A stretch of DNA of 64,000 bases from Escherichia phage dw-ec. Location: sequence record OL739525.1. One strand, 5' to 3'. This document shows positions 825 through 56,652 of the stretch, piece after piece (the first letter of the stretch is position 1; every line of letters begins with the position of its first letter). A program made the translations under genes and the position numbers. A model generated the notes under the pieces. The model was not told the DNA's origin. It was given only the letters and a program-made list of their open reading frames with translations, and did no database searches.

Positions 825-1169
825 ATGCAAGAGAGTAAAAATGTTCCGTTGAGTAGTTTACGTCTAATGAAGTTTTACAAAGCTTGGCTTGCTGGTGAGG
901 TAGAAGGTCACACAACGAGTGGTTTGTGCATATGTTTGATTAAGTATGTAGAGGGAACATACCCTGATGAACTGTTACCTCGTCTACAACAGGAGATGAA
1001 ATCACAGTTTATTAGTGCAGGACTAGATTACAATTTCCCGTTTAATGAAGGTGGTTATGAGGAATACACCTTCGAACATAAAAAACATATTTGCCATAAA
1101 AACAAACATCGTATACAATGGGTGCTAGATAGAATTCAGGATTACGAAGGAGAGAAAAATGACAAATAA
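825..1169 (+). CDS. hypothetical protein, paralog family A member 1
   Basis: RBS gagaggag before ATG; shared motifs FYKxWL, GLCxCL, PFN, CHxN..RIQWVxDRI. Confidence 0.65.
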   Translation: MQESKNVPLSSLRLMKFYKAWLAGEVEGHTTSGLCICLIKYVEGTYPDELLPRLQQEMKSQFISAGLDYNFPFNEGGYEEYTFEHKKHICHKNKHRIQWVLDRIQDYEGEKNDK

Positions 1170-1557
1170 TATTCCGTTGAGTAGTGCAGAATTGATTCGA
1201 TTCTACAAAGCATGGATGGCTGATCACTTCAGCATGGATCGCACGAAGAATGGTCTGTGCACTTGTCTTGTAAATTTCCTAGCTTCAACACTGCAACCTG
1301 AAAACCCGACAGAGGATCAATGGATAACCTACTTAAAGATACGTAATAAGATTGTAAGAGAGATGAAATCTCAATTTCTTTGTGCTAACCTGTCTTATGT
1401 CTTTCCATTTAATATGGGCTTCCAAGATTATGAAAATGAAGTCAAACACAAAAGGTGTCATGAAAACCCACTCCGTGTGCAATGGGTTAAGGACAGAATT
1501 GAAGATTGTTTGAATAATTATGAGGATGTGTTATGCGAACAAAACAAATCTCGTTAA
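1159..1557 (+). CDS. hypothetical protein, paralog family A member 2
   Basis: family A motifs (FYKAWM, GLCTCL, PFN, CHEN..RVQWVKDRI); start overlaps upstream stop. Confidence 0.65.
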   Translation: MTNNIPLSSAELIRFYKAWMADHFSMDRTKNGLCTCLVNFLASTLQPENPTEDQWITYLKIRNKIVREMKSQFLCANLSYVFPFNMGFQDYENEVKHKRCHENPLRVQWVKDRIEDCLNNYEDVLCEQNKSR

Positions 1558-1898
1558 GTAGTACAATGTTGTTGATGTTTTATAAAAGGTGGTTGGAAGG
1601 AGATACTTCCCTTAATCGCACAGAGCACGGGTTGTGTTTATGTATTAATCATTTTGTGCGAAGTCATTATGCAAAGGATGTGCACAGTCCTAGATGGTAT
1701 GATGACATGGTGAACAGTTTGTTATATGAAATGCGTAAGCAATTTGAGGAAGCTGATCTTAGTGCTATTAATCCATTTAACAAAGCATATGCAGATTACT
1801 TCCTTGAAGTTGAGAACAAAATGTGTCATCTGAATCCGCTTCGCATTCAGTGGGTGAAAGATCGCATTGAAGATGCAAATAATGCTTGCATTGAATAA
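1533..1898 (+). CDS. hypothetical protein, paralog family A member 3
   Basis: family A motifs (FYKRWL, GLCLCI, PFN, CHLN..RIQWVKDRI). Confidence 0.65.
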   Translation: MRTKQISLSSTMLLMFYKRWLEGDTSLNRTEHGLCLCINHFVRSHYAKDVHSPRWYDDMVNSLLYEMRKQFEEADLSAINPFNKAYADYFLEVENKMCHLNPLRIQWVKDRIEDANNACIE

Positions 1899-1957
1899 AA
1901 ATGTCTGTATAGTGGTTTGCATACCGCGCATAACAGATAGCCAATGAGGAGATTGAA

Positions 1958-2167
1958 ATGTCAAATATGAAAACTGTATCCTTGTATTTAGCTAACACTG
2001 ATCGTGTGCACACCCTTGCTAATGCAAGTCGTGTACTCGTGCAGTTCCGAAACTTCGCACCGTCCGTTGTGACAGGCAGTGAAACGTGTGTGATCGATTT
2101 CATCAATGAATATTTCCACGGGAATCCTGTTGCTCGTCACTTCGTGGAGAATATGAAAGATGCATAA
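1958..2167 (+). CDS. hypothetical protein
   Basis: ORF with RBS (ggagattgaaATG), dominant strand. Confidence 0.45.
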   Translation: MSNMKTVSLYLANTDRVHTLANASRVLVQFRNFAPSVVTGSETCVIDFINEYFHGNPVARHFVENMKDA

Positions 2168-2390
2168 CATGAAACGTATGAAAATTCGTATTGAGAATGA
2201 TGGTGGTTATAAAGGATTGGCACATGCAAAATTTCCACTTGTGTTGGAAGCTACAGTGGAATACAGTGGGCTTGCTCATGTGCGATTCTCGAAGATGATG
2301 GAAGTGCAGGAGTGGTTTTGGGACGAGATAGATGCACGAGAAGGGGAAGATTATGTTTTCTTTCCTCACGAATATGAAATTGTCTATTAA
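2160..2390 (+). CDS. hypothetical protein, paralog pair B
   Basis: shares MKIR start, EWF and DYVFF motifs with 6876..7097. Confidence 0.5.
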   Translation: MHNMKRMKIRIENDGGYKGLAHAKFPLVLEATVEYSGLAHVRFSKMMEVQEWFWDEIDAREGEDYVFFPHEYEIVY

Positions 2391-2393
2391 AGG

Positions 2394-2627
2394 TTGTGTG
2401 CAATGATCACACCACAACAGAACGAAGCAGCAATGGATCTTCTTGACAGTTTGTATTTCGATAATTGGTACTCTGAATGTGAATGGATGAATGTGCAAAC
2501 TCTGAAAGAGAAGACGGAAGCGTTGATTACAGTAGATCAATTTCTTGCAGAGACAGAAAGAATGAATTATGATATGGCATCTCGCGCACGACGCGTTTCC
2601 ATTTTCAATAAAATGTTAGCATTATAG
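2394..2627 (+). CDS. hypothetical protein
   Basis: ORF on dominant strand, tight spacing. Confidence 0.4.
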   Translation: MCAMITPQQNEAAMDLLDSLYFDNWYSECEWMNVQTLKEKTEALITVDQFLAETERMNYDMASRARRVSIFNKMLAL

Positions 2628-2638
2628 GGAGGTAGAAA

Positions 2639-3100
2639 ATGAGACAATTCACTATACTGGCAGCTTATGTGCAATGTGTTCACGATTATGTTAGTGCTCA
2701 TACAGGTTTGCTGGAAGTTACCAGTAAAATTGAAGGTAATATGGGTACTGTCTGTGTGCAACATACTTTATCCAATGTGCCGTTTAAAGTGTTCACTGTT
2801 GTAGCTGCCGATTACAATCGTGTAGATGTGCGTTTCTTGGATCATAATTTTCGTAACGCATTAGATAATATTGAAGATTATCTTCCCGTGAAACCTTTGT
2901 CATTTCCACCGAGTCGTGCAAATAATGTAGCGACAAACCTTAATGAAAGGAATGTGGCTATGCACAAAAAAGTCCGTCAACTGAAAACGCTGATGGAAAT
3001 GCAAGAAGAGATTGAAAAAGAACTGAAAGAAGATTTTGGTATGCTTCCAAAAGACGCTTTGAAATGGTATGATGAACTAGGAGGAGAAAGTTATGAATAA
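2639..3100 (+). CDS. hypothetical protein
   Basis: ORF with RBS gggaggtagaaaATG. Confidence 0.5.
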   Translation: MRQFTILAAYVQCVHDYVSAHTGLLEVTSKIEGNMGTVCVQHTLSNVPFKVFTVVAADYNRVDVRFLDHNFRNALDNIEDYLPVKPLSFPPSRANNVATNLNERNVAMHKKVRQLKTLMEMQEEIEKELKEDFGMLPKDALKWYDELGGESYE

Positions 3101-3287
3101 AGAAACTACTGTATATTTAGTGACTAAGAACACCCCAGGTTGGAGCCAATGCAGCACTGTTCCTTACAAGATCTGTGCAACACTGGAATTAGCACAACGT
3201 GCAGAAGCAGAAGTTGATGCTATGCGATACAGCTACGGTGAAATCATTCCTTTTACTCTTGAACAAGAAGGAGCACATCGTGTTTAA
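3093..3287 (+). CDS. hypothetical protein
   Basis: ORF with RBS ggaggag; overlaps upstream stop. Confidence 0.45.
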   Translation: MNKETTVYLVTKNTPGWSQCSTVPYKICATLELAQRAEAEVDAMRYSYGEIIPFTLEQEGAHRV

Positions 3288-3735
3288 AGTAGGGTTTACT
3301 TATAAATTCAAAAGTGTTGCTGACCAAGGAGCTATGGCAACACAGGACAAAGCAAATATTGCTGTTTGCCAAGCGATTGGAAACGAAGTTTTCAAAGTTA
3401 TGAATACAGATGATAAGTATGGTCATGTTCTTGAGTTTTATACCAATGGTACCCTTTATACAGCAGGTGTTACCCCAGGGTTTAATTCGTATACTTATTT
3501 GATTGATAACGAAGAATTTAAATATTTTGAAGAAGTAAAGGAGGAAACAATGGGTAAAGCAGAACCACAATGGCATGTTGTGATCGTAGGATCAGAGTGT
3601 GTAGATGTTTGTTCTAGTTTTGAAAAAGCTTCTGAAGTCGCTACAAAAGCTAAGAAGGATTATCCGTCGAAGACGGTTGAGATTTACGCTCGTGTTGCAG
3701 TAGCAAACGCCACAATCACTATTGATAAGGAGTAA
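3280..3735 (+). CDS. hypothetical protein, tandem paralog family C member 1
   Basis: probable GTG start at 3280 after RBS gaaggag (the track ORF 3199..3735 starts upstream in the same frame); N-terminus MFKVGFTYKFKS resembles the next two genes. Confidence 0.45.
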   Translation: MFKVGFTYKFKSVADQGAMATQDKANIAVCQAIGNEVFKVMNTDDKYGHVLEFYTNGTLYTAGVTPGFNSYTYLIDNEEFKYFEEVKEETMGKAEPQWHVVIVGSECVDVCSSFEKASEVATKAKKDYPSKTVEIYARVAVANATITIDKE

Positions 3736-3740
3736 AGCCA

Positions 3741-4196
3741 ATGTTCAAAGAAGGTCATGTCTACCGTTTCCAGGATGAAGATTATATGCAATTATATTCT
3801 ACCTTTGATAACAGTATGGCTGCTATCATTGGAGAGAATTTTTTCGAGGTGTTGAGCACTGATGCAAATGGTAATATCTTGTCAATTGTTGTGATAGGGA
3901 GAGACGGTATTATCACTGCTAGTGATGGGGATCGTTACATAATCAATTCTGCTCATATAGATTATTTTGTTGACGGTGGTATTCGTGGTAGTCGTGGAAA
4001 ACCCCAAGAAGAACCTGTTGATACAACAAAAGAAGAGTGGTATGTTGTAATGACTGATGACACCTGTATTTCTGGATTTGAAAGTTATGAAGAAGCTTTG
4101 AAAGAAGCAGCAGAGCATAAAATGGCTAATCCTACAGAAGAGGTTGAAGTTTATAAACGTTTGGTTGTTGCTACCATCGGCGTATCTTTTGTTTAA
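3741..4196 (+). CDS. hypothetical protein, tandem paralog family C member 2
   Basis: N-terminus MFKEGHVYRF and C-terminal WYVV..VEVYKRLVVA resemble neighbours. Confidence 0.5.
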   Translation: MFKEGHVYRFQDEDYMQLYSTFDNSMAAIIGENFFEVLSTDANGNILSIVVIGRDGIITASDGDRYIINSAHIDYFVDGGIRGSRGKPQEEPVDTTKEEWYVVMTDDTCISGFESYEEALKEAAEHKMANPTEEVEVYKRLVVATIGVSFV

Positions 4197-4208
4197 AAGG
4201 GGAATGTT

Positions 4209-4646
4209 ATGTTTAAAGTTAATGCTGTTTACTGTTTCAAAAGTAAAGCTGCCTGTGAAGCTTTCTCTATGATCTCTGATGAAAATTTCAAAATGGCAGC
4301 TTTGATTGAAGGGTCTTGTTTCCGCGTCGAAAATGTTAGTGAATCGGGGTCTGTTTGCTCATTGACTTTATTGGACAGTGGAGATATTATTGAAGCTGGA
4401 CAGTATCCGTTCAGGAGTTGGGAGATATTGTTAGCTCGCGGAGAGCGTAACTTTTTTATGTGCGTGTCTGCGGGGGAAGCTGTGAAAGAAACTAAGGATG
4501 TTTCTGTTTACAATTCTGAATTTATAAGTTATAGTGAGTATCAACATCTGGAAGGCATTGTTGGTCACTTGTTATCTCTGATTGACATTGAATGTGACCT
4601 GCCTGAATCATTGAAAGAAGAGTTGAAAGCATTAGATCTGCTGTAA
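4209..4646 (+). CDS. hypothetical protein, tandem paralog family C member 3
   Basis: N-terminus MFKVNAVYCFKS resembles 3280 and 3741 genes. Confidence 0.5.
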   Translation: MFKVNAVYCFKSKAACEAFSMISDENFKMAALIEGSCFRVENVSESGSVCSLTLLDSGDIIEAGQYPFRSWEILLARGERNFFMCVSAGEAVKETKDVSVYNSEFISYSEYQHLEGIVGHLLSLIDIECDLPESLKEELKALDLL

Positions 4647-4673
4647 TGTTTCGCACAACGAAAGGAGAATAAG

Positions 4674-4973
4674 ATGAATCTGACCGAACAGTTACGCCGT
4701 ATTGCAAAAGAAGCTTCCTTCAACTTCCCTGTTGAAGAAGTGATCGAGACATGTTTTGCTGAAGCACGAGCGGGAAACTCTTCAAGAAATTTCACGCCAT
4801 CCGATTTTGGTCTGAATAATTCTCCCACCCACCCAGAGCAGATCTACAATCAGGTGAAGTGGATGGATGAAGCAGTAGCAATTCTTCGTGAGCGTGGGCT
4901 TATTGTTTATAAAGAAATGGATCTGAACGGGGCATACGAGTGGATCACTATTGATTGGTCCGAGGTGAAATAA
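4674..4973 (+). CDS. hypothetical protein
   Basis: ORF with RBS aaaggagaataagATG. Confidence 0.5.
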   Translation: MNLTEQLRRIAKEASFNFPVEEVIETCFAEARAGNSSRNFTPSDFGLNNSPTHPEQIYNQVKWMDEAVAILRERGLIVYKEMDLNGAYEWITIDWSEVK

Positions 4974-5206
4974 TGAAAGGTAACAAGATGAAAGTTAATC
5001 AAGTGCCGAGCGCATACACTTTGTGGCTTGCGCGAGCATTACACCAGACGATCAAAAACCCTAAGAAGCCAATGAAGAGCGGGAAGAAGTTTATGTCTAA
5101 GGGCAAAACAACCTTTGGCTTCACTCGTATGTCTGTCAAGATGAAAAGGCTGGGGTACAAGCCAAACTACGCTCGTTACCCTTCTGAATACAACTGGTTT
5201 GACTAA
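4973..5206 (+). CDS. hypothetical basic protein
   Basis: ATG at 4973 after RBS gaggtg, overlapping upstream stop (TAATG); Lys/Arg-rich. Confidence 0.4.
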   Translation: MKGNKMKVNQVPSAYTLWLARALHQTIKNPKKPMKSGKKFMSKGKTTFGFTRMSVKMKRLGYKPNYARYPSEYNWFD

Positions 5207-5218
5207 AAGGAAAAAGCA

Positions 5219-5692
5219 ATGGCAGGTTTGAAACTGGAGATGTTGACAAAGCAAGAATTTGTTCCCGAACACGGTGAAACTTACATTGCTTTCTTGATTA
5301 GTGATTTTTATGGGGATTTAGAGTATGTTGAACTGGAGTGTGAGTTTCACTACCAAATGATCGACGCAGAAACTGGTTATTGTCTGGGTACGTCTGCGGT
5401 GTATAATGGTGATAATGGCATTCCTTTTCATACCCCAATGAGGTACGAAGCGAAAAACCGATTCAAACTTCTCACAGAAGAAGAAAAAGAGACATATAAA
5501 TATCACGAAGAGGAGGATCAACGCTTCTGGTGGGAGAAAACTTGGTTCCTGTCTGATCGCCGTAATCTTCAGATTCACCCAGAAGAACTGGATGAAATGT
5601 CTATTGGCATTATGAAGAAGAAAGACTTCATGTTCCAGGTGAGAGAAGCTAATAAGCTCCGTATTGCAATTAAAGAGGAGAACAAAATATGA
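5219..5692 (+). CDS. hypothetical protein
   Basis: ORF with RBS aaaggaaaaagcaATG. Confidence 0.5.
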   Translation: MAGLKLEMLTKQEFVPEHGETYIAFLISDFYGDLEYVELECEFHYQMIDAETGYCLGTSAVYNGDNGIPFHTPMRYEAKNRFKLLTEEEKETYKYHEEEDQRFWWEKTWFLSDRRNLQIHPEELDEMSIGIMKKKDFMFQVREANKLRIAIKEENKI

Positions 5693-5973
5693 AAACATCT
5701 ATTCGCGTAAAACATGATCCAAACAGCAGTTACCCATACGCGGATGTTGAACGTCATGAAGGAGACTATTACACCATAAAACGTAAAGTCCCAACTGATA
5801 CAGGGTTTAACTTTGATGTTATTGCGCTGGATGATCAAGGTGTTGATAATCTGGTGAACGCATTACTCGCATTGAAGGAAGTACGACATGAAAATCAGAC
5901 TAAAGGTAAAGTGGCTTTCGATTCTTGTGATCGTTTAGCCGAAGAGATTGCCGAATGGCGTGACACTAACTAA
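5689..5973 (+). CDS. hypothetical protein
   Basis: ORF with RBS aaagaggagaacaaaatATG. Confidence 0.5.
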   Translation: MKTSIRVKHDPNSSYPYADVERHEGDYYTIKRKVPTDTGFNFDVIALDDQGVDNLVNALLALKEVRHENQTKGKVAFDSCDRLAEEIAEWRDTN

Positions 5974-5988
5974 AACAGGAGAAAGATT

Positions 5989-6165
5989 ATGGCTACTTTT
6001 CAACAACTGAAAGATGTTTCACGTTTAGTAAGAAAAATCCGAGAAGCAGACGCTGCTGTGCGGAATGCACTAACGCCAGCAGAGCGTGAAGATCTTGAAG
6101 AGGAGGTGAAAACAGCCGAGAATGCTTTTGCTGTGTATCTTGCAACACTGCATACAGGAGGTTAA
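5989..6165 (+). CDS. hypothetical small protein (58 aa)
   Basis: unlisted short ORF with RBS acaggagaaagattATG filling an intergenic gap. Confidence 0.3.
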   Translation: MATFQQLKDVSRLVRKIREADAAVRNALTPAEREDLEEEVKTAENAFAVYLATLHTGG

Positions 6166-6471
6166 ATGTCAGAAGAACTTAAAGAATTTTATCAAGCATA
6201 TCATAACTGGCTGTTAGCTGGTGCTCCAGATAATAATCCTTTCTGGCATGATAAAGGATTATGTAGTTGCCTCTACCTTTGGACTGGAGGTTATGATGAT
6301 CTAAATTATGAAATGCAAATGCAATTCCGTGAGGCAGGATTGTCTGAAGAATACCCGTTTGATGACGGAGACTGGTTTAAATATGATTTTGCACAAAGAA
6401 ACGGGCTATTGCATTTGAATGCTGCCCGTATAAAATGGGTAAAAGACCATGCTACACAGGAGGATGTGTAA
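6166..6471 (+). CDS. hypothetical protein, paralog family A member 4
   Basis: family A motifs (FYQAYHNWL, GLCSCL, PFD, LHLN..RIKWVKD). Confidence 0.6.
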   Translation: MSEELKEFYQAYHNWLLAGAPDNNPFWHDKGLCSCLYLWTGGYDDLNYEMQMQFREAGLSEEYPFDDGDWFKYDFAQRNGLLHLNAARIKWVKDHATQEDV

Positions 6472-6671
6472 TGCCAATAGTGTTTAGTTTCTTAGTAATT
6501 GTTATGGTTGTTCTTTTCGCGGCATGGCTTTGGGATTTTGACCCAGGAGCAGCGCAGCAAAGAGCTACAGACTGGAAAGAACAATGTATTGTGCTCAAAC
6601 ATGAACGAAATGCGGAGAAATTTCTTGACCTAGAGTGTGATCGCCTTGTAAGATACAAGCAAGATAAATAA
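6471..6671 (+). CDS. hypothetical membrane protein
   Basis: ATG overlapping upstream stop; hydrophobic N-terminus PIVFSFLVIVMVVLFAAWLW. Confidence 0.4.
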   Translation: MPIVFSFLVIVMVVLFAAWLWDFDPGAAQQRATDWKEQCIVLKHERNAEKFLDLECDRLVRYKQDK

Positions 6672-6685
6672 CCTTGAGGTGCAAA

Positions 6686-6874
6686 ATGGTAATTGAGATT
6701 AAACTTGAATATGCTGGGGCTGTTGCTCTGATCGCACAAACGCTTGGAGCAAAGATTGAAGAAGTGTATATCAATGCCTGGAGCGTAGAGATTGATGTTC
6801 CTATGGACAGCATTGCTAATCGCTTGTTGGTGGCAGAGTGTGAACGCACCAACATAATCTACAAAGGAGCATAA
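6686..6874 (+). CDS. hypothetical protein
   Basis: RBS gaggtg then ATG at 6686. Confidence 0.4.
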   Translation: MVIEIKLEYAGAVALIAQTLGAKIEEVYINAWSVEIDVPMDSIANRLLVAECERTNIIYKGA

Positions 6875-6875
6875 T

Positions 6876-7097
6876 ATGAAAATTAGAGTTTGCGATGTAT
6901 TGGGTTATGTTGGTTTTGAGAATGTTCAGATTCCTTTTGTTGTTGAAGCACATCTTGTTAGCGATGACATGACAACATTCTTTGTTACGATAGAAGAAAT
7001 GTCCAAAGTTGAGGGATGGGAGTGGTTTGAAGAAGATGTTTGGGAAGGTTGTGATTACGTATTTTTCTCTGATGAAGTGAATGTTCTTTCGGAGTAG
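6876..7097 (+). CDS. hypothetical protein, paralog pair B
   Basis: MKIR start, EWF and DYVFF motifs shared with 2160..2390. Confidence 0.5.
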   Translation: MKIRVCDVLGYVGFENVQIPFVVEAHLVSDDMTTFFVTIEEMSKVEGWEWFEEDVWEGCDYVFFSDEVNVLSE

Positions 7098-7099
7098 GT

Positions 7100-7306
7100 A
7101 TGTCTTGTTTTACAAAAGCAGTGTCCATATGTAAGAAACAGTATGAAAGTGATTACGGAATATTTAATATTCCAGTGGATCATACGGAGTATTGTTCATG
7201 TGGTGGCAGAATGAAGAAAACAGTGATTTATGCGGATAATGGAGATGAACTTGTTCCGGTTATGGTTTGCAAAGCTTGTCATTCTGTTAAAACATTAAAA
7301 GCGTAA
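7100..7306 (+). CDS. hypothetical protein with 4-Cys zinc-ribbon-like motif
   Basis: CSCGG ... CKAC cysteine pairs. Confidence 0.4.
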   Translation: MSCFTKAVSICKKQYESDYGIFNIPVDHTEYCSCGGRMKKTVIYADNGDELVPVMVCKACHSVKTLKA

Positions 7307-7401
7307 GGAGTCGGGACACCCGACGATTGGAGCTAAAAATTTTGCGTACAACCCTTTCCGCCCAACAGGGGCGCGTCGGGTAAATAAAGAGGAGAGTTTA
7401 T

Positions 7402-7800
7402 ATGAAAAAGATCATCGTAGGTTTATTGTTACTCATTGCATCACTCGGAACAGCAAATGCGTCTCAAGTTTATGAGTGTGTGTCAGATGTGGTTGTTAAA
7501 AATCTGAAAGGTGAAGTGATTTCTGGTCCTAAGAAAATGGCTTCTGTTGTCATTAATAAAGATAACTCCTTTATCCTTAAAAATTCAGGTGGTGCTTTGA
7601 TGAGTGGCATTCTGCAACACACAGGAGAAAAAAGTAAAGATGGTAGTGCTATGTATGGTTCACAACAGTTTATTGGCACTACTGAAGTAGTAATGATGCG
7701 CACAGAGTATCGAGACACTTTAGCTTGGTTTGCATTTCTAAAAAATGATAAAACAATAACGAATGTTCTTACTCTAGAAGCTGATTGTACGCAACGATAA
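7402..7800 (+). CDS. hypothetical secreted protein
   Basis: RBS agaggagag; N-terminal signal peptide KKIIVGLLLLIASLGTANA. Confidence 0.55.
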   Translation: MKKIIVGLLLLIASLGTANASQVYECVSDVVVKNLKGEVISGPKKMASVVINKDNSFILKNSGGALMSGILQHTGEKSKDGSAMYGSQQFIGTTEVVMMRTEYRDTLAWFAFLKNDKTITNVLTLEADCTQR

Positions 7801-7810
7801 GGTGGTATTT

Positions 7811-8257
7811 ATGACTAAAGTGCGACATTACGCTGTAAACTGCAACGATGTTTGGCGTTTGTGTCCTGATGATCCGACAGAAGGCACATTTGTAAGATAT
7901 GAGGATTATAAAGAGTTATCGGATGCTGTGATCGCATTGTTAACCGATATCCGTTCACGTTATCCAGGACAAGATTTCACTTGCCCTCACATCAAACTTC
8001 TTGCTTGTCTGGTAGAAGGTGAGAAAGAAGTGGAAGATGGCTTCAAGCGTGTAGAGTATCAAGGTGAAACTTTAGATGTTCCTGAATTTGTTAATTATAT
8101 TGCAACAGACTCGGATGGTGATCGTTATGGTTACAGCCATAAGCCAGAGATTCCTGATTGGATTCCCGCTTGGCGTATTTCCGTTAGTACCGGAGACTAT
8201 ATCTTCCTTGGCGTAGGTAGTAGTAAGGATTGGCGTTTCTCTTTGACAGAGGTTTAA
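7811..8257 (+). CDS. hypothetical protein
   Basis: ATG at 7811 after RBS aaggtgg. Confidence 0.45.
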   Translation: MTKVRHYAVNCNDVWRLCPDDPTEGTFVRYEDYKELSDAVIALLTDIRSRYPGQDFTCPHIKLLACLVEGEKEVEDGFKRVEYQGETLDVPEFVNYIATDSDGDRYGYSHKPEIPDWIPAWRISVSTGDYIFLGVGSSKDWRFSLTEV

Positions 8258-8261
8258 TAAT

Positions 8262-8525
8262 ATGAAAGAGACATTGCCAGCAGCATACCGTTTGAATGAT
8301 GAACGTATTTGGGAGTGGACCGACGTTTCTTGTTTTTACCCTGAAATAGTTCAATATTGGCGAGCAAAAGGGTGTGTTGTAGTTATCAACCCTTGTGGAC
8401 CAGTAGATGAAGATTGTTTGTATCTCAATGGAAAGTGGCACAGTTATTGTCGCTGGCCTTTTGAGTGGATGTGTAAAGAAGATCTCCCAGAGGGTTGGGA
8501 GTATCCGAAAGCAAATAGGAGATAA
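8262..8525 (+). CDS. hypothetical Cys-rich protein
   Basis: ORF on dominant strand. Confidence 0.4.
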   Translation: MKETLPAAYRLNDERIWEWTDVSCFYPEIVQYWRAKGCVVVINPCGPVDEDCLYLNGKWHSYCRWPFEWMCKEDLPEGWEYPKANRR

Positions 8526-8526
8526 T

Positions 8527-8889
8527 ATGTCTAAAGATTTTGTTGAAGTGTTTGTCAAAGACGAAGAAACTGGTTTAGGCACAGGTTTCATTTGCGAAGA
8601 AACTTTTAAGCGTGAACAAGAAAAAGCTATTCTTATGCACCGCTATGATCATGCATTAGAACAATGGAAAAATGCAGAACAAAAATGCAAAAACCTTTAC
8701 GCAGAAAATAGAAAACTACAAGATCAAATGGAGTTGTTAGCTATCAGTTTACGATCTCTCATTTTGGCTGTAGAAGATGGTTTTAAAAATCCAGATGGTT
8801 TTCCTGTGAGCGATATTGAACATGATTTGTATCTTGCTCGTGGTGCTTACTTTTATGTTAAACAGAAGCCTGTAGAAGGAGAGAAATGA
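8527..8889 (+). CDS. hypothetical protein
   Basis: ATG at 8527 after RBS aataggagataat; in frame with track ORF 8407..8889. Confidence 0.45.
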   Translation: MSKDFVEVFVKDEETGLGTGFICEETFKREQEKAILMHRYDHALEQWKNAEQKCKNLYAENRKLQDQMELLAISLRSLILAVEDGFKNPDGFPVSDIEHDLYLARGAYFYVKQKPVEGEK

Positions 8890-9086
8890 TGGAAGAAAAA
8901 CTGGAACGTATTATCGAGTTAGCCATGTCTATTGGCTACGACGATTGTTTTCTCCAAACTATTGGAGAAACACAGGACGATTACGACTCTTGGGTGAAAG
9001 AGTTGGAAGAACTCAAAACTTCCTTGATTGCTGACTTTGCTGAAGCAGAGGATAAAGCAGATCGTTACAACTATCTGTGTCGATAA
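8886..9086 (+). CDS. hypothetical protein
   Basis: ORF with RBS gaaggagag. Confidence 0.45.
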   Translation: MMEEKLERIIELAMSIGYDDCFLQTIGETQDDYDSWVKELEELKTSLIADFAEAEDKADRYNYLCR

Positions 9087-9089
9087 GCC

Positions 9090-9118
9090 TTGACATTTAT
9101 TTTATGTATGGTATACAT
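9090..9118 (+). promoter_or_regulatory. sigma70-like promoter
   Basis: TTGACA at 9090-9095, TATACA about 16 bp downstream. Confidence 0.45.
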
Positions 9119-9148
9119 ACATTATCAACGTGAGAAAGGTGGTGTAAT

Positions 9149-9421
9149 ATGAATAAAGATCGGTTTCTTTCTTTAGTCGCGGAAGCGCCTTTTGATGTTC
9201 TTGGGGTGAGATTATGGAAAGACAGAAACTATGGGTTAGATGTTCAAACATATTCTCTTTGGTTGGTTGGGGAGCACAGCTTAGATGAAAGCTTGTGCAT
9301 GGGTAGGGATTCTCGTTCCCTTTGTTTAAAGTTTAGAAGCTTAGAACGCGCAAACAAAGAGCAAGAAAAACTAACGAGGTGGCTAAATGAAAACAAGCGC
9401 AGGGTTGATGGAGTTTTATAA
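9149..9421 (+). CDS. hypothetical protein
   Basis: ORF with RBS gaaaggtgg. Confidence 0.45.
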   Translation: MNKDRFLSLVAEAPFDVLGVRLWKDRNYGLDVQTYSLWLVGEHSLDESLCMGRDSRSLCLKFRSLERANKEQEKLTRWLNENKRRVDGVL

Positions 9422-9713
9422 AATTTATCTAGCATGGATTGATGTTGGTGCTCCTGATGGTAAACCTTTTCGGCGAGATTGCGGTTTGTGTGCCAATTTG
9501 TTCGATTATGTGCACGCAGATGGCTACAATCTCCTTATAACAACCTTGTCAGACGAAATGCACTCACAGTTTTACTACAAAGGGTTGAGTCAAGAACTCC
9601 CTTTCAATGAGAACTACGATGCATATGTCTTAGAATCAGATGCAGAGGTATGTCACCTGAACGTGGACAGGATTAATTGGGTAAGAGATCGTATTGCAGA
9701 GGAGGATGAATAA
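9387..9713 (+). CDS. hypothetical protein, paralog family A member 5
   Basis: family A motifs (FYKIYLAWI, GLCANL, PFN, CHLN..RINWVRDRI). Confidence 0.6.
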   Translation: MKTSAGLMEFYKIYLAWIDVGAPDGKPFRRDCGLCANLFDYVHADGYNLLITTLSDEMHSQFYYKGLSQELPFNENYDAYVLESDAEVCHLNVDRINWVRDRIAEEDE

Positions 9714-9940
9714 TGTCGGATTATAACTGGTATGAACTTGAGGCTGTTTGTCAGTTTTACGACTCAATAGTTCTGCGTGATCCAATCTGTCAAGAATTAA
9801 GTCGCCGTGCAAGTGCATTGGCAATCAATGTTAAAGTGCACGATTGGAACGCAGATCTGGAAAAAGAATTGGAATTCCTTTTGGAAACAACCCGTGTCTT
9901 CCATAAAGTGTTCCCTGAATGGTTTGAGATGGAGGAATAA
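9713..9940 (+). CDS. hypothetical protein
   Basis: ORF overlapping upstream stop. Confidence 0.4.
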   Translation: MSDYNWYELEAVCQFYDSIVLRDPICQELSRRASALAINVKVHDWNADLEKELEFLLETTRVFHKVFPEWFEMEE

Positions 9941-9942
9941 GC

Positions 9943-10155
9943 ATGTGGATTGTCCGTCTTAAGTATGATGGCAAGTTTCCGTGGGAGAAAGATGTTTGTG
10001 CCTGTGATTCAGCAGCACATGCCAAAGCAGCGGGTCAGGCAGTAGTTGACATGTATAACAACACCCCCTTTGATCCAGAAATGGCAGGTGTTACAATGAG
10101 CATGTTCACTTACTATTCTTTTGAGGTTTACTATCACGAAGGAGAGTGGAAATGA
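9943..10155 (+). CDS. hypothetical protein
   Basis: ORF with RBS ggaggaataagcATG. Confidence 0.45.
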   Translation: MWIVRLKYDGKFPWEKDVCACDSAAHAKAAGQAVVDMYNNTPFDPEMAGVTMSMFTYYSFEVYYHEGEWK

Positions 10156-10472
10156 GCGAAGAGCTATTAACATTTTACCGCACGTATTTGGCATGGTTGG
10201 AAGCTGGTGCTCCTGAAGGTGAACCGTTCACCCGTTGCACAGGTTTGTGCACGAACCTCTATGATTTTTACGACATAGGAGAAAGCGAACGATACGAACC
10301 TGTACTGGATGAAATGCATGAGCAGTTCTACCTCAAAGGTTTGGTTATGGTGTTGCCTTTCAACAGTAATTTTGGAAAGTACACCTTAGAAGCGGAAAAA
10401 GGCCGTTGTCATTTGAATGTGGATCGTGTGAACTGGGTAAAAGAACGTGTAGCAGAAGAAATAATTGGTTGA
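10146..10472 (+). CDS. hypothetical protein, paralog family A member 6
   Basis: family A motifs (FYRTYLAWL, GLCTNL, PFN, CHLN..RVNWVKERV). Confidence 0.6.
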   Translation: MEMSEELLTFYRTYLAWLEAGAPEGEPFTRCTGLCTNLYDFYDIGESERYEPVLDEMHEQFYLKGLVMVLPFNSNFGKYTLEAEKGRCHLNVDRVNWVKERVAEEIIG

Positions 10473-10497
10473 CAGAAGGATCTGTCTTTGTCATAAT
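10469..10497 (+). promoter_or_regulatory. sigma70-like promoter (TTGACA, 17 bp spacer, CATAAT)
   Basis: TTGACA at 10469-10474, CATAAT at 10492-10497, followed by RBS and the 10527 ATG. Confidence 0.6.
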
Positions 10498-10526
10498 CAT
10501 CTCATCGAAACAGAGAGGAGAAAATC

Positions 10527-10940
10527 ATGAAAAAGTTTATTTGCACCCGTTCCACTAACAGTGATATCCTTGTAGGTAAGGTTATCAAAGGAGAACTCTT
10601 CCATGCAAACGGTAAGAAATATATTCTGCTGAAAGATTCTTTCAACGGGGAATATCCGCGCTGCACTTTCTTCAATTACAATACTCCATTTGCTTTAGAA
10701 GGAGATGCTTGGGACTGGGCTGAACTTCATCCTTGTTGTGAGGAAGAAGAATCTATGTTCTTAGGTTTAAACGTTTACCGTGTAGATTACACCATGTGCG
10801 GAGCGGAATATTCTGTTCGCGTAGAAGCCGAATCCAAACTACAAGCACCTTTCAAGGCGGGATTGACTTTGGGTCATTGTTTGGCAAACATTGAAGATGT
10901 TGTGATCCAAAGAGTTGTTTTAGAGAAAGAGGCTATTTGA
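10527..10940 (+). CDS. hypothetical protein
   Basis: RBS agagaggag; promoter upstream. Confidence 0.55.
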   Translation: MKKFICTRSTNSDILVGKVIKGELFHANGKKYILLKDSFNGEYPRCTFFNYNTPFALEGDAWDWAELHPCCEEEESMFLGLNVYRVDYTMCGAEYSVRVEAESKLQAPFKAGLTLGHCLANIEDVVIQRVVLEKEAI

Positions 10941-10965
10941 CAGAAGACGGTACAATATTTAAAAT
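10937..10965 (+). promoter_or_regulatory. sigma70-like promoter (TTGACA, 17 bp spacer, TAAAAT)
   Basis: TTGACA at 10937-10942, TAAAAT at 10960-10965. Confidence 0.5.
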
Positions 10966-10992
10966 ATAAAGATTAACCACAAAGGAGAGAAT

Positions 10993-11292
10993 ATGCAAGT
11001 TGAAGACCTGATCCACATTCTGAATAAAGCTAAAGAGAAGGGTGCTATCAAAGACTGGAAACGTGAAACAAGTGAAGATTTATCTCATTGTTGCCGAGAA
11101 TTTTACATCGAAGGTATTGCTGACGATCATTATACTATTGAATGGTATATCAACTTAATGACTCTTAAGCACGGTTCATTTGAGGTTTGGTTTGATGATA
11201 TTGATGTAAATGGTTTCCATCCTGGCTATAAAATCGCTATGCAGTTATCTTATCGTAGAGAAGTTGTAGCACATTTGGGTTTACATAACTAA
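10993..11292 (+). CDS. hypothetical protein
   Basis: RBS aaaggagag. Confidence 0.5.
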   Translation: MQVEDLIHILNKAKEKGAIKDWKRETSEDLSHCCREFYIEGIADDHYTIEWYINLMTLKHGSFEVWFDDIDVNGFHPGYKIAMQLSYRREVVAHLGLHN

Positions 11293-11302
11293 GGAGAAAA
11301 GA

Positions 11303-11626
11303 ATGCAAGCAGTTGTTAACGAAGCTATTATGAACTTATCCTTCTTGTTAGCTGGTTTAGGAGGTGTCCTCATAGGTTTGGCTCTTATCTGGTGTATTCG
11401 TCGATTAATCGGGTACCGACAAAAAGGTGTTTCATGTTTTGTATCTTATAATTTTACAACTGCTTACAGCAATGAGGTGGGATCTGGTAACGCTCAAGCA
11501 TTTTTACCAACATATCCTCCTACAGTGGAAGATATTCGAAACTTGGAAGTAGAACTTATGGGACTAAGTGATAATTATACATCTCTCGTTATTCAAAATA
11601 TTTTTCGACTAAAACAGGAGGCGTGA
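11303..11626 (+). CDS. hypothetical membrane protein
   Basis: RBS aaggagaaaag; hydrophobic segment LSFLLAGLGGVLIGLALIWCI. Confidence 0.5.
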   Translation: MQAVVNEAIMNLSFLLAGLGGVLIGLALIWCIRRLIGYRQKGVSCFVSYNFTTAYSNEVGSGNAQAFLPTYPPTVEDIRNLEVELMGLSDNYTSLVIQNIFRLKQEA

Positions 11627-11839
11627 ATGAAGGCACATTACCCTCATCCCTTTGATCCTAAAAACAAAGCCGTAATTCTTCGTCAGTGGCAACGGGTTTG
11701 TCGTACTAAATGTCCAATTAATAGCCCACACAATGTAGACAAGGATTATCTTGGGACATTTGTTGAATACACTTACATAGACAAAAACAAGCGTAAACAA
11801 CATGTCGAGGAATACTGCTTAAGAGTAGAATGGCTGTAA
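11627..11839 (+). CDS. hypothetical protein
   Basis: RBS acaggagg; Cys/His-containing small protein. Confidence 0.45.
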   Translation: MKAHYPHPFDPKNKAVILRQWQRVCRTKCPINSPHNVDKDYLGTFVEYTYIDKNKRKQHVEEYCLRVEWL

Positions 11840-11851
11840 ATAATAAATACC

Positions 11852-11880
11852 TTGACAAGTGTTTATTCATTTTGTAAAGT
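11852..11880 (+). promoter_or_regulatory. sigma70-like promoter
   Basis: TTGACA at 11852-11857, TAAAGT at 11875-11880. Confidence 0.45.
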
Positions 11881-11909
11881 GAGAATACAGCAATGGTTTA
11901 GGAGTGGTT

Positions 11910-12581
11910 ATGAAAAAGTTTGTTGTTTACAGTCGTCTTTCTAAACAGAAAAAAGGCGAGGCACAATATGGTATGGAGAGCCAAGAGAACGATATCCGTT
12001 ACTTCTTAGACTCTGTGCCTGATGCGGAAGTTATTGGTCAATTTTCTGAATACTATTCGGGTAAGGGCGATTGGAAGCAACGTAAGGAACTGGTTAAAGC
12101 GGTTGAAATGTGTAAAGCTACCGGAGCAACTTTATTGGTAGCTAAAGTTGACCGCTTGGGTCGTAACAACGCCTCCGTAGCAACTCTTCTAGAAATGATC
12201 GATGTTAAGATAGCCATTATGCCAGATGCAGATAAAATGGTTATACAGCTTCTGTCTGTTCTGGCTGAACAAGAGGTTAGAGGTATTGCTGATCGTATTA
12301 AAAAGGGTCTTGCTGTAGCAAAAAGCAAAGGTGTTTTATTAGGCAGTGCTAATCCTAAAACTGCCGCTGCACGTAGAAAAGGAAAAATGGAATACAACTC
12401 TGTTAAAGCAGACGCTTTTGCAGAGACATTTCGTGAACGTTTGGAGATCCTTAGAGATTTAAATACACCTTACAAAACTATTGCTGAAAAATTCAATAGT
12501 AAGAAAATAGCAACAGCACGTGGTGGTAAATGGGATGCTAAAACTGTTTCTCGTTTGTGTGCCAGACTGAACATTAAATAG
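11910..12581 (+). CDS. small serine recombinase (resolvase/invertase family)
   Basis: N-terminal catalytic motifs VVYSRLSKQ and VAKVDRLGRN typical of resolvase-type serine recombinases; basic C-terminal tail; RBS aggagtgg. Confidence 0.65.
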   Translation: MKKFVVYSRLSKQKKGEAQYGMESQENDIRYFLDSVPDAEVIGQFSEYYSGKGDWKQRKELVKAVEMCKATGATLLVAKVDRLGRNNASVATLLEMIDVKIAIMPDADKMVIQLLSVLAEQEVRGIADRIKKGLAVAKSKGVLLGSANPKTAAARRKGKMEYNSVKADAFAETFRERLEILRDLNTPYKTIAEKFNSKKIATARGGKWDAKTVSRLCARLNIK

Positions 12582-12589
12582 GAGAGGAT

Positions 12590-13012
12590 ATGAAACAAGA
12601 AAATGAATCTGTAGATCACTTAATCATGCTGTCAGCCCTTTTTGCCGGATGGGACGTATTTTTTGAAAATTTGTTCAATTCTGCTACAGATGGTTCCGAT
12701 TTTATGCGCCAGTTTAAACGACGAACTGTTGAGGACTATGCTTTCTATTCAGGTCGGATTGAAAAAGGTTACGAAGATACAAATACAACACTCACTATTA
12801 AAGTTTTAGATGTGATGTTTAGTGTTATAGATGCTATCGACGAAAGCCTTCCGATCCTAGACAATTGTAATACGAAAGCCTATGTTTACAAAATAGCTCG
12901 TGCTTATGTGTCTGCAAACAGTTGTCTTCTTTCCACCCAGATTGCCGTGAACAATCTTGCCAACTTGTTTGATGAAGGAGAAACTTTTTATGACAATCGA
13001 TTTGAAGTGTAA
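12590..13012 (+). CDS. hypothetical protein
   Basis: RBS ggagaggatATG. Confidence 0.45.
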   Translation: MKQENESVDHLIMLSALFAGWDVFFENLFNSATDGSDFMRQFKRRTVEDYAFYSGRIEKGYEDTNTTLTIKVLDVMFSVIDAIDESLPILDNCNTKAYVYKIARAYVSANSCLLSTQIAVNNLANLFDEGETFYDNRFEV

Positions 13013-13355
13013 GAGGATTCTTTTAGATTTCTATAATAATTGGTTAGAACACCTCCGTCTCTTTCCAAGAGAAAGTGGTTACGCTGATGTTGGCTTATGC
13101 CGAGGTCTGCGTATGTATATAAGTGATGAATTTCGGGCAGAGCATTCTTTAGCATATTCTGTTTATGGTATGCAATTAGCCAGTTTTGAAAACGCTGGCT
13201 TAGATACAACTTTCCCATTTAACACAGCAAAATCTTTTGAGCAAGAGTGTAAGGAAAAACGTTGTATGTTTAATGAAAAACGTGTACAGTGGGTTAAGGA
13301 TCGAGTTAAACAACTGGAACAAGAGTTGGATTTCTTCTATGATGAGGCAGAATAA
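12990..13355 (+). CDS. hypothetical protein, paralog family A member 7
   Basis: family A motifs (FYNNWL, GLCRGL, PFN, CMFN..RVQWVKDRV); start taken at internal ATG 12990. Confidence 0.55.
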   Translation: MTIDLKCKRILLDFYNNWLEHLRLFPRESGYADVGLCRGLRMYISDEFRAEHSLAYSVYGMQLASFENAGLDTTFPFNTAKSFEQECKEKRCMFNEKRVQWVKDRVKQLEQELDFFYDEAE

Positions 13356-13627
13356 TGGATAGACAAACCTTAAAAACAATGGCAGATGCTACTAATTCCC
13401 CGTACTTTGAAAAAGTAAGTAAGTTGGTAGCTCAAGCCGCAGAGGAAGGATATTATAACATAAACATCCACAACCCAAGTCTTATACTAGAAATGCCAAG
13501 TGATAAGAAGATACAAGAAAGTATCTGCGAAGGTATTGTTAGTTACTGGCGCGAGCGTGGGTGTGGTGCAAACATGGCTTTAGACAGTGCAAACATTGTA
13601 AGATATATAAATATTTCTTGGGGGTGA
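13355..13627 (+). CDS. hypothetical protein
   Basis: ORF overlapping upstream stop. Confidence 0.4.
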   Translation: MDRQTLKTMADATNSPYFEKVSKLVAQAAEEGYYNINIHNPSLILEMPSDKKIQESICEGIVSYWRERGCGANMALDSANIVRYINISWG

Positions 13628-13631
13628 TTTT

Positions 13632-14243
13632 ATGATTCAATGCACTCATATCCAAATTACTTGGAGAGATGAACTTTACCATTTGGGACAATTTACTGTA
13701 GGGGAGACATACCCTGTCATTAAACATAATCCTAACATCGCAAACTTTGATAGGATGGTTCTTGTTGAGGACGATCTGGGTCAAACTTATTCTTTAGATC
13801 TAAAATATCCGTTTTCTTACGGCTACGATTGGATCGTTACTTTTGAAGACGTGGAGGAAAATAAAACAATGAACGAAAAAAATTCTTGGTATTATCGTTG
13901 TGAACTGCCGCCAGTAGGTGAAAAGGTTATCTTTGTTCCTGATTTGGAAAGATATTCTTGGGACAGTTCTTATTCTGTTCCTAAAGAAGGCACCGAAGTT
14001 GAAGTTATTGCACATCGCACGACTTCGCATGGTAACGATGTAGCAGTTGTTTTCTGGGATGATGAAGGCGCTGCTTGTGCAGGTGGCTTTGTTGCAGGTA
14101 ACTTTGAACCCCTGCCAGATCCTTTGAAGGAGGCAATTTTAGGCGTAGCTTCTTTTGGACTCTCTTACACGTCTGCACAGGAGATCGTAGAAGGTATTTT
14201 AAACGGTACTGTTCCAAACGAAATTTTCAAACAGATTAAATAA
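13632..14243 (+). CDS. hypothetical protein
   Basis: ORF with RBS gggggtgattttATG. Confidence 0.5.
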   Translation: MIQCTHIQITWRDELYHLGQFTVGETYPVIKHNPNIANFDRMVLVEDDLGQTYSLDLKYPFSYGYDWIVTFEDVEENKTMNEKNSWYYRCELPPVGEKVIFVPDLERYSWDSSYSVPKEGTEVEVIAHRTTSHGNDVAVVFWDDEGAACAGGFVAGNFEPLPDPLKEAILGVASFGLSYTSAQEIVEGILNGTVPNEIFKQIK

Positions 14244-14258
14244 CAGTTGCACCCCGTT

Positions 14259-14283
14259 CTGCGGGGTGTTATTGTATATGTAA
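14259..14283 (+). terminator. putative weak intrinsic terminator
   Basis: hairpin caccccg/cggggtg followed by TTATT. Confidence 0.35.
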
Positions 14284-14294
14284 AGGAGGCGCTA

Positions 14295-14633
14295 ATGTAT
14301 TACACTGAAGACTACATATTGTATAACTTTTTTAAAGGTTGGTTGAAATGGGCGGAACAAGCTCCTGTCGGAGATTGTGTTTTTCCTTGGGATTCTCGTC
14401 AAGGCTTGTGTCGTTGTTTGGAAGATTGGCTTATAACCACAAACTACAATTCAGAAACTAAGAAATCTACATCAAACAGATTAAAAATGTTGTTTGAAGA
14501 AGATGGTTTAGATCCAATTTATCCTTTCGGTGAGGAAAGTTTCCACAATGGTCTTTTCCTTGGCACTCAACATTATGATAAAGATCGTGTAGATTGGGTA
14601 AAAGAAAAGGTAGCACAGTATGAATGGGGTTAA
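14295..14633 (+). CDS. hypothetical protein, paralog family A member 8
   Basis: RBS aaaggagg then ATG at 14295; motifs FFKGWL, GLCRCL, PFG, RVDWVKEKV. Confidence 0.55.
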   Translation: MYYTEDYILYNFFKGWLKWAEQAPVGDCVFPWDSRQGLCRCLEDWLITTNYNSETKKSTSNRLKMLFEEDGLDPIYPFGEESFHNGLFLGTQHYDKDRVDWVKEKVAQYEWG

Positions 14634-19069: not shown

Positions 19070-19105
19070 AGAAAAGGCACCCACTTGGGTGCCTTTGTTT
19101 TATTC
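19070..19105. terminator. bidirectional intrinsic terminator at convergence of plus and minus blocks
   Basis: hairpin ggcaccca-ct-tgggtgcc flanked by A-run upstream and T-run downstream. Confidence 0.7.
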
Positions 19106-55042: not shown

Positions 55043-55117
55043 GGCCCTGTAGCTCAATGGGAGAGCTGTCGGCTCATAACCGATAGGTAGCTGGATCGAA
55101 ACCAGCCAGGGCCACCA
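55043..55117 (+). tRNA. tRNA-Met (anticodon CAU)
   Basis: acceptor ggccctg/cagggcc, anticodon loop ctCATaa, T-arm and encoded CCA (hand fold). Confidence 0.7.
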
Positions 55118-55119
55118 AC

Positions 55120-55194
55120 GTCTTTATGGTGTAATGGATAGCACAGGAGTCTTCTAAACTCTTAGTCAAGGTTCGATTCCTTGTAAAGACACCA
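55120..55194 (+). tRNA. tRNA-Arg (anticodon UCU)
   Basis: acceptor gtcttta/taaagac, anticodon loop ctTCTaa, T-loop ggttcgattcc, CCA (hand fold). Confidence 0.65.
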
Positions 55195-55390
55195 GAACAT
55201 TTTAACATGAATTAGCTCAAGTGATTTGAACCCACTACTGATCATGGTGGCAGAGAATGAGGCAAGTATGTCAGACATTATAAACAAAGGCCACGGTTAT
55301 ATTAGAAGACATAAATGCTCGAAGAGCACCGTTCGTTGAGAACGGGGGTTGGTGGAGTCACCATTCATGGTAAAATGTTTTAAAAAACTA

Positions 55391-55420
55391 TTGACAACTA
55401 ACATTATTTTATGTTAGATT
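55391..55420 (+). promoter_or_regulatory. sigma70-like promoter inside the tRNA cluster
   Basis: TTGACA at 55391-55396, TTAGAT/TAGATT 17-18 bp downstream. Confidence 0.45.
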
Positions 55421-55428
55421 ATAAGTAT

Positions 55429-55519
55429 GGAAGGGCAAATCGATGTGGCGACGAAAACGGTCTTGAAAACCGCCGAGCTTGAAAGAGCCTTGGGAGTTCG
55501 ACTCTCCCTCCTTCCGCCA
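55429..55519 (+). tRNA. tRNA-Ser (anticodon UGA), type II
   Basis: acceptor ggaaggg/tccttcc, anticodon loop ctTGAaa, long variable arm, CCA (hand fold). Confidence 0.6.
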
Positions 55520-55524
55520 GATTA

Positions 55525-55610
55525 GGTAGATTGGTGAAATGGTAGCCACAACAGTTTGCTAAACTGTAGTCGGAAACGGCGTGTAGGTTCGAGTCCTACA
55601 TCTACCGCCA
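55525..55610 (+). tRNA. tRNA-Ser (anticodon GCU), type II
   Basis: acceptor ggtagat/atctacc, anticodon stem acagt/actgt with loop ttGCTaa, long variable arm, CCA. Confidence 0.65.
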
Positions 55611-55740
55611 AGTTCTTTTTAATATAGCTTACTTTAATAGAGTAAACTTTCGGCAGATGGCCTCCACCATCTTACCGATAACTCATAGTTAGTGGTGTGA
55701 ACACTGGCTATTTTAAAAAGAATTTAAATATTAGTATTTA

Positions 55741-55828: not shown

Positions 55829-55834
55829 AATTAA

Positions 55835-55920: not shown

Positions 55921-55927
55921 GAATTAT

Positions 55928-56004: not shown

Positions 56005-56010
56005 AGTTTT

Positions 56011-56388: not shown

Positions 56389-56399
56389 AAAGATGTAGG

Positions 56400-56647: not shown

Positions 56648-56652
56648 TATAA

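Follow-up and report, generated by a model that had tools for sequence, protein, structure and literature searches.

Eight small paralogs of Escherichia phage dw-ec and a widespread, catalogued but undescribed family of phage proteins

What are the eight small, similar proteins encoded near the beginning of a 64,000-nucleotide stretch of Escherichia phage dw-ec (sequence record OL739525.1; this whole stretch is called the window)? A preliminary description, made from the sequence alone, had singled out eight open reading frames (ORFs) between positions 825 and 14633 and proposed that they encode a paralogous family of metal-binding proteins under diversifying selection. We found that the eight genes are best explained as an expanded set of a widespread, uncharacterized domain of ~100 amino acids (aa) that is acidic, is predicted to fold into five helices, and is restricted to phages in our scans.

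Eight paralogs and their family

All of the genes are on the + strand between 825 and 14633, and their products are homologous proteins of 101-132 aa. The listing of ORFs confirmed each position, as follows.

825 to 1169, + strand: copy 1, 114 aa; matches phrog_2510 (E = 2.8e-26) and the family hidden Markov model (HMM; E = 4e-40); Shine-Dalgarno sequence GAGGAG
1159 to 1557, + strand: copy 2, 132 aa; recognized by ORF, motifs, phrog_2510 and family HMM
1533 to 1898, + strand: copy 3, 121 aa; recognized by ORF, motifs, phrog_2510 and family HMM
6166 to 6471, + strand: copy 4, 101 aa; recognized by ORF, motifs, phrog_2510 and family HMM
9387 to 9713, + strand: copy 5, 108 aa; matches phrog_2510 (E = 5e-31); AlphaFold2 model
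10146 to 10472, + strand: copy 6, 106-108 aa; recognized by ORF, motifs, phrog_2510, family HMM, Shine-Dalgarno sequence and blastp
12990 to 13355, + strand: copy 7, 121 aa; recognized by ORF, motifs, phrog_2510 and family HMM
14295 to 14633, + strand: copy 8, 112 aa; recognized by ORF, motifs, phrog_2510, family HMM and Shine-Dalgarno sequence

The eight copies can be aligned from end to end, and 13 columns of the alignment are invariant. Identity between pairs is 24-51%, and every pair was significant by blastp (E from 9e-40 to 2e-3 in a proteome-sized search space). The 64-kb window has 667 six-frame ORFs, of which an HMM made from the eight retrieved exactly these eight (E ≤6e-36); the next-best ORF had E = 0.06. 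In addition, all eight proteins matched phrog_2510 (E from 3e-21 to 2e-31). The alignment, the pairwise matches and the exclusive retrieval bear out the proposal of a true paralogous family. Four of the ordered motifs on which that proposal was based are real: F-[YF]..W, G-L-C-x-[CNG]-[LI], P-F-[NDG] and R-[IV]-x-W-V. The motif C-[HM]-x-N stood less well, because its Cys is lost in copy 4 (Leu) and in copy 8 (Gln).

Copies 1-3 are in tandem, with overlaps of 11 nt (copies 1 and 2) and 25 nt (copies 2 and 3), and each of the eight has an AG-rich Shine-Dalgarno sequence 5-10 nt 5' of its start, as had been described. Copy 1 is the first gene of a rightward block of small ORFs as well as the first of the triplet, and its ortholog in phage ESCO13 is 98% identical. 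Copy 4 is of the "canonical" type, with a GAP...PF loop. Copy 6 is most similar to copy 5 (51% identity) and has no close ortholog in ESCO13, where its best match is the copy-5 ortholog (56% identity). Its true start is probably the ATG at 10152, matching the annotation of phage ETEC-TG. Copy 7 belongs to a separate deep lineage in a neighbor-joining tree. Copy 8 is the most divergent. A strong terminator-like hairpin with a T run (14249-14269) lies 5' of copy 8 and inside an alternative ORF that starts with TTG (14247), which favors the ATG at 14295 as the start.

The family extends far beyond this phage and is common among phages that infect Proteobacteria. An exhaustive profile search of 1.84 billion cluster representatives returned 1,982 proteins at E ≤1e-3, of which 1,003 had E ≤1e-10. 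That is, the family comprises ~2,000 clusters at 50% identity, phage N4 gp3 included, and the rarity that the preliminary description implied does not hold. Most members are 95-125 aa, and many chains carry two or three copies of the domain; gp339 of the Burkholderia jumbo phage BcepSaruman is a three-domain member. By tblastn, members were found in ~250 phage records, all annotated "hypothetical protein". They occur in the Stephanstirmvirinae, the Schitoviridae (N4-like), the Autographiviridae (JG068, RSB1 and RHEph phages), the Drexlerviridae, Xuquatrovirus PTXU04, Nankokuvirus and other PAK_P3-like Pseudomonas phages, PhiW-14 and jumbo phages, and so include members from T7-like and T1-like phages. 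Genome papers have noted BLAST matches between phages and kept the genes as hypothetical proteins (PMC3765740, PMC5735904).

We looked for chromosomal members with two degenerate DNA motifs, which cover part of the family only, in one genome per species from 100,044 bacterial and archaeal species, and found none. The two scans gave 0 and 13 matches; 12 of the 13 were chance matches and one was a 717-bp phage contig. This contig (L018; JAPMLR010000037.1, in the assembly "Lysobacteraceae bacterium JHOS43") has a near-identical copy of copy 6 and is most likely Phapecoctavirus contamination of that assembly. The sole context seen outside lytic phages was pZ1323HEC0010-2 from E. coli (NZ_CP148392), a 92.8-kb, non-mobilizable, phage-plasmid-like replicon that encodes a 159-aa member (4980-5459; E = 6e-30). 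It also carries Phd/Doc, DUF968, PAPS reductase, dUTPase and a DUF2829 gene.

No named domain had been recognized in the eight proteins, and this held in every collection searched. Scans of Pfam-A, NCBIfam and PADLOC gave sub-threshold chance matches only (e.g., DUF6853, YaeQ and NCBP3), sequence-profile searches of the PDB with alignments of 8 and 126 sequences gave no match, and PHROG 2510 is labeled "unknown function". None of the characterized defense or anti-defense families in PADLOC, Pfam, NCBIfam and PDB sequences gave a profile match. Membership in zinc modules, winged-helix proteins or defense-related families was rejected by profile, structure and motif tests. The extra segments of longer relatives had no Pfam match except for one weak zinc-ribbon tail. 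A second, word-indexed homolog search contributed little, and no shared neighbor gene emerged from the nine contexts inspected. A search of passages in a survey of polyvalent proteins (PMC5512222) found no mention of the domain.

Predicted fold, conserved residues and selection

The proteins are predicted to form a plain five-helix domain. The AlphaFold2 model of copy 5 has a mean predicted local distance difference test score (pLDDT) of 94.3, a predicted template modeling score (pTM) of 0.86, and helices at residues 5-19, 34-44, 48-64, 77-85 and 93-107. The model of copy 2 (pLDDT 92.2) has the same five helices in the same order; its ~20-aa insertion merely extends helix 3 (residues 52-75). 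Models of 17 phage relatives in BFVD match the fold with template modeling (TM) scores of 0.75-0.90. No structural relative of the five-helix fold was matched in the PDB. The proteins are acidic, with isoelectric points (pI) of 4.5-6.8 for the copies in the window and a family median of 5.5.

We determined conservation over 158 domains from ~150 clusters that share <50% identity. A signature consisting of F-Y..W in helix 1, G-L-C, the P-F loop, and R..W-V in helix 5 is invariant in all eight copies and 96-100% conserved in the 158 domains. Helix 1 has one conserved face (L, F-Y and W). G-L-C is conserved at 98/96/99%, and its Leu opens helix 2 in both models, which puts the Cys in the first turn of that helix. 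Helix 3 has a conserved E-M..Q-F and helix 4 a conserved Y..E; the P-F loop is conserved at 100/99%. Just before helix 5 is [H/Y]-x-N, with the Asn at the N-cap position, and helix 5 itself contains R..W-V, with the Arg at 99%. In the models, the aromatic face of helix 1, G-L-C, the P-F loop and R..W-V make up what is predicted to be a rigid conserved scaffold. Variation in sequence and length is concentrated in the hairpin of helices 2 and 3, the loop between helices 4 and 5, and the C-terminal tail. No column is ≥50% conserved in the stretch that runs from the end of helix 2 through the turn to the middle of helix 3 (between positions 40 and 57 of the profile), and nearly all insertions and deletions are found there.

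This pattern does not fit the small Cys/His metal-binding fold that had been proposed. The window copies do contain Cys and His (2-6 and 2-5 per protein, respectively), six of the eight have C-[HM]-x-N, and five have C-x-C. A zinc site requires three or four conserved ligands. The Cys of G-L-C is the only one conserved across the family (99%). The second Cys position is N in 61%, C in 16% and S in 9% of members (N, S or G in relatives), and the third is L, Q, T, M, A or S in many relatives. The His is conserved at 75%; the other quarter of members have Tyr, Trp or Met at this position, and copy 7 has Met. A single conserved Cys falls short of the three or four ligands needed, leaving the metal-binding idea unsupported. 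We also looked for zinc-finger and zinc-ribbon matches by profile (Pfam, with the eight proteins) and by fold (PDB) and found none, and the predicted fold is all-helical. Judging from conservation, the eight proteins very probably bind no zinc through a Cys/His site. Our confidence is high for this conclusion, for the five-helix fold and for the homology of the eight copies.

Diversifying selection, the other part of that proposal, does not agree with comparisons of orthologs. We used NG86 estimates of the ratio of nonsynonymous to synonymous substitution rates (dN/dS), values that rest on few substitutions. Compared to ESCO13, dN/dS was 0.09 for copy 1, 0.00 for copy 4, 0.52 for copy 5, 0.02 for copy 7 and 0.05 for copy 8; compared to phage phiWec179, it was 0.38 for copy 5 and 0.58 for copy 6. 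That is, four copies had values of 0.00-0.09 and two had values of roughly 0.4-0.6, in the same range as neighboring small genes (0.00-0.65). These values indicate that each paralog lineage is conserved, and the orthologs appear to be under purifying, not diversifying, selection.

Arrays, expression and genome context

The set of family genes changes between close relatives. The window has eight copies, phiWec179 has nine, and ETEC-TG and ESCO13 have seven each; in a Justusliebigvirus, two family genes are in the homologous region. One ESCO13 family gene (L006, 11985) has no counterpart in the window, and several positions in phiWec179 are occupied by "replacements" that are merely 30-55% identical. 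The tandem block (825-1898) has three genes here and in phiWec179 and two in ETEC-TG and ESCO13 (stretches compared: L001 1514-2225, L006 1454-2165 and L007 3070-4259), a change in size that is consistent with unequal recombination between tandem paralogs. In a rough neighbor-joining tree, the eight copies fall into at least five deep lineages, and copy 4 clusters with members from T1-like phages and PTXU04.

Arrays are also found elsewhere. PTXU04 has three tandem genes and PAK_P3 has seven. In Rhizobium phage RHEph09, a single-domain gene precedes a two-domain gene, and a 62.6-kb metagenomic contig has seven family genes with eight domains. Multi-copy arrays and fusions of two or three domains have arisen independently in unrelated phages.

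Relatives tend to be found where early genes are found. In an N4-like contig, the member is between the Gp1/Gp2 and RNA_pol genes; in Axy11, it is 2.9 kb from the left end. The left-end block of N4 is transcribed by the injected virion RNA polymerase (PMC4496689). In the T7-like genome of JG068, gp5 is between the annotated host promoters and the first terminator (PMC3765740). RNA sequencing of PAK_P3 infection (PMC4933390, S5 Table) found thousands of reads for all array members at 3.5 min. Of these, gp114 and gp118 were classified "Early" (log2 fold change of -1.5 and -1.2) and gp115, gp116 and gp120 were unchanged; structural genes went up by log2 5-13. In a transcriptome-wide CRISPRi-ART screen, PTXU04_00085, 86 and 87 were all "Not Fit", and their HHpred annotation was "unknown" (PMC11879866). 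An early, accessory character fits the indirect evidence from these relatives: the positions in early blocks, the transcription of the PAK_P3 array at 3.5 min and the dispensability of the PTXU04 genes upon knock-down. The role in host takeover or anti-defense that the preliminary description had expected is putative.

Phage LUZ7 has no family member in its early region. The N terminus of its RNAPII large subunit (L032, 6934-8226) contains QRIQWVMDH, which resembles the family sequence RIQWVKDH (HMM E = 0.04). This likeness is probably due to chance because N4 RNAPII has no such match.

The window is evidently part of a Phapecoctavirus genome, as judged from nucleotide matches. Escherichia phage ETEC-TG covers 96% of its 14-kb region, with 99.2% identity, and 185 phage records match this region, most of them Phapecoctavirus (subfamily Stephanstirmvirinae). 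All eight family genes are confined to the first of the following features.

825 to 19073-19096, + strand: block of ~70 small ORFs, ending at a bidirectional terminator
19.4 to 54 kb, minus strand: block with Sir2, both ribonucleotide reductase subunits, ThyX and DNA ligase
55043 to 56966: ten tRNA genes (Met x2, Arg, Ser, Asn, Thr, Gly, Gln, Pro and Ile)
from 58.4 kb: terminase and portal genes

The tRNA cluster sits between the nucleotide-metabolism module and the terminase gene, and the terminator that closes the + block (19073-19096) is perfect. Two further pairs of paralogs are in the + block: 3199-3735 and 3741-4196 (25% identity, E = 1e-11), and 2160-2390 and 6876-7097 (37% identity, E = 1e-10). 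The block therefore carries several multigene families and not one alone. A serine recombinase/invertase gene (11904-12581) is in the middle of the block; its protein is 100% conserved compared to ESCO13 (dN/dS 0.02). A Resolvase gene is also found among the family members in the metagenomic contig L011. Two near-consensus sigma70-like promoters (11 of 12 matches; 10469-10497 and 10937-10965) are just 3' of copy 6. A scan of the region for sigma70 promoters found 62, not above the 54.5 ± 8.3 expected by chance, so we drew no operon map from promoters.

Possible roles and known relatives

What might such proteins do? Our preferred reading, to which we give a little less than an even chance, is that they are accessory early proteins that bind host or host-defense proteins, with the array giving several specificities. 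The proteins would be made at early or middle times, and each would be individually dispensable. The variable surface of each copy would bind a host or host-defense protein, the conserved core would be a scaffold or a common docking site, and the array would cover several targets or target variants. This reading is based on the small, acidic, stable fold, the placement in early blocks, the dispensability, the restriction to phages, the amplification and fusion, and the variation in the hairpin and tail.

Several points weigh against it. No Phapecoctavirus transcriptome was found in the literature, so "early" is based on gene position and distant relatives. In PAK_P3, gp117 and gp121 went up ~2.5-fold by 13 min (PMC4933390); that is, timing within the array is mixed. 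The knock-down result in PTXU04 could reflect redundancy among paralogs and not an accessory role. A literature search on phrog_2510, on Phapecoctavirus paralogs and early genes, and on N4 gp3 found no functional study, and no published function for N4 gp3. Lastly, polar residues as close to invariant as these (Cys 99%, Arg 99%, Gln ~90% and Asn 92%) typify a conserved ligand or catalytic site more than they do a pure scaffold.

It is possible, though we would sooner doubt it than assert it, that the domain is a modular host-interaction scaffold of a new fold. The core, perhaps through the invariant Cys/Arg site, would dock a common partner, and the hypervariable hairpin and tail would pick the targets. 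If true, this would explain why the domain was amplified independently into arrays of 3-9 genes and into multi-domain fusions in unrelated phages. In that case, the array in Phapecoctavirus would amount to a battery of inhibitors or adaptors whose targets differ.

The polar residues bring up the main rival, that the proteins are small Cys-dependent enzymes or redox proteins. Together with the conserved Arg, Gln, Asn and His, the Cys would serve as a nucleophile or redox center that acts on some molecule present in all Proteobacteria, and the paralogs would differ in substrate targeting. The Cys is the second residue of helix 2 in both models, where the helix dipole would lower its pKa, and C-x-C occurs in five of the eight copies. 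A scaffold does not usually call for conservation as strict as that of the Cys and Arg, and over ~150 clusters the near-invariant residues listed above are joined by Pro-Phe (~100%) and Glu (85%). Nonetheless, we think an enzyme is unlikely. The domain has ~100 aa, is all-helical and has no match to an enzyme family or fold. The His is replaced in a quarter of members, copy 7 among them. The polar residues may instead be structural: Asn92 and a conserved Ser coincide exactly with helix N-caps, and the Arg may be part of a salt bridge. Repeated expansion into arrays would also be unusual for an enzyme.

A second alternative is a sponge or sensor for a small molecule, e.g., a nucleotide-derived immune signal, in which the polar residues form a pocket and oligomers or fusions form the sites. 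The proteins are small, acidic, encoded in early gene blocks and dispensable, with a conserved constellation of polar residues, and natural fusions of two or three domains suggest that they work as oligomers. We consider this improbable, since a single conserved pocket leaves 7-9 deeply diverged copies unexplained and the fold is similar to no solved PDB chain searched, any sponge structures among these included. The odds are just as poor for a regulator of the phage's own program, either a transcription or replication cofactor or a DNA or RNA binder. A pI of 4.5-6.8 argues against binding to nucleic acid, the three PTXU04 members are dispensable, and the family spans phages with entirely different transcription strategies. 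A small metal-binding fold under diversifying selection is very improbable, given the single family-wide Cys and the ortholog dN/dS values.

Whichever role is correct, here is a family of ~2,000 clusters that has no description, Pfam entry or structural relative and yet is present in the model phage N4. It is found in groups that are candidates for phage therapy (Phapecoctavirus, PAK_P-like, N4-like, T1-like and T7-like phages). Testing members should be easy, as they are small and soluble and are non-essential individually. Knowing their targets could reveal new mechanisms of host takeover or anti-immunity, and could help explain differences in host range among close therapeutic phages, whose repertoires of family genes differ.

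The closest relative in a well-known phage is N4 gp3 (YP_950481, 104 aa; NC_008720, 1214-1528), which matches the family profile over its full length (E = 3e-22). It shares the signatures FL..Y..WL, G-L-C, P-F-N, C-H-L-N and R-I-N-W-I. It is the third gene of the left-end early block of N4, between gp2 and the RNAPII genes. N4 has this single copy in its first 12 kb, compared to eight copies in the window.

Other relatives are arranged more like those described here. PTXU04 gp85, gp86 and gp87 are three tandem, overlapping members of the canonical type that group with copy 4 in the neighbor-joining tree; they have been tested experimentally by knock-down. The PAK_P3 array (gp114-gp118, gp120 and gp121; 63.7-67.5 kb) is also tandem, with mixed early and middle timing. 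Its members are very distant (E from 1e-5 to 3e-9); gp121 has two domains, and gp118 has F in place of the W and Y in place of the H.

Two catalogue clusters contain members of the family, neither with a function or a description. PHROG 2510 covers all eight proteins; its profile is 219 positions long and so appears to include two-domain members, whereas the window proteins have a single domain. The pVOG VOG7392 is the label on gp134 and gp138 of phage alia, the two members in that phage.

Some small, all-helical phage effectors are of similar size. T4 AsiA and the Acb2 sponge are ~90-110 aa, all-alpha and expressed early, and are functional analogies only. Atd1, an anti-TIR protein reported in Phapecoctavirus, we take to be a MazG-like enzyme that is unrelated to the gp3-like family.

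Based on these comparisons, the eight proteins are members of a catalogued yet undescribed cluster (PHROG 2510, VOG7392), of which N4 gp3 is the best-known member. In fold and function, the family belongs to no kind described so far; in its general biology, it is similar to other families of early ORFans.

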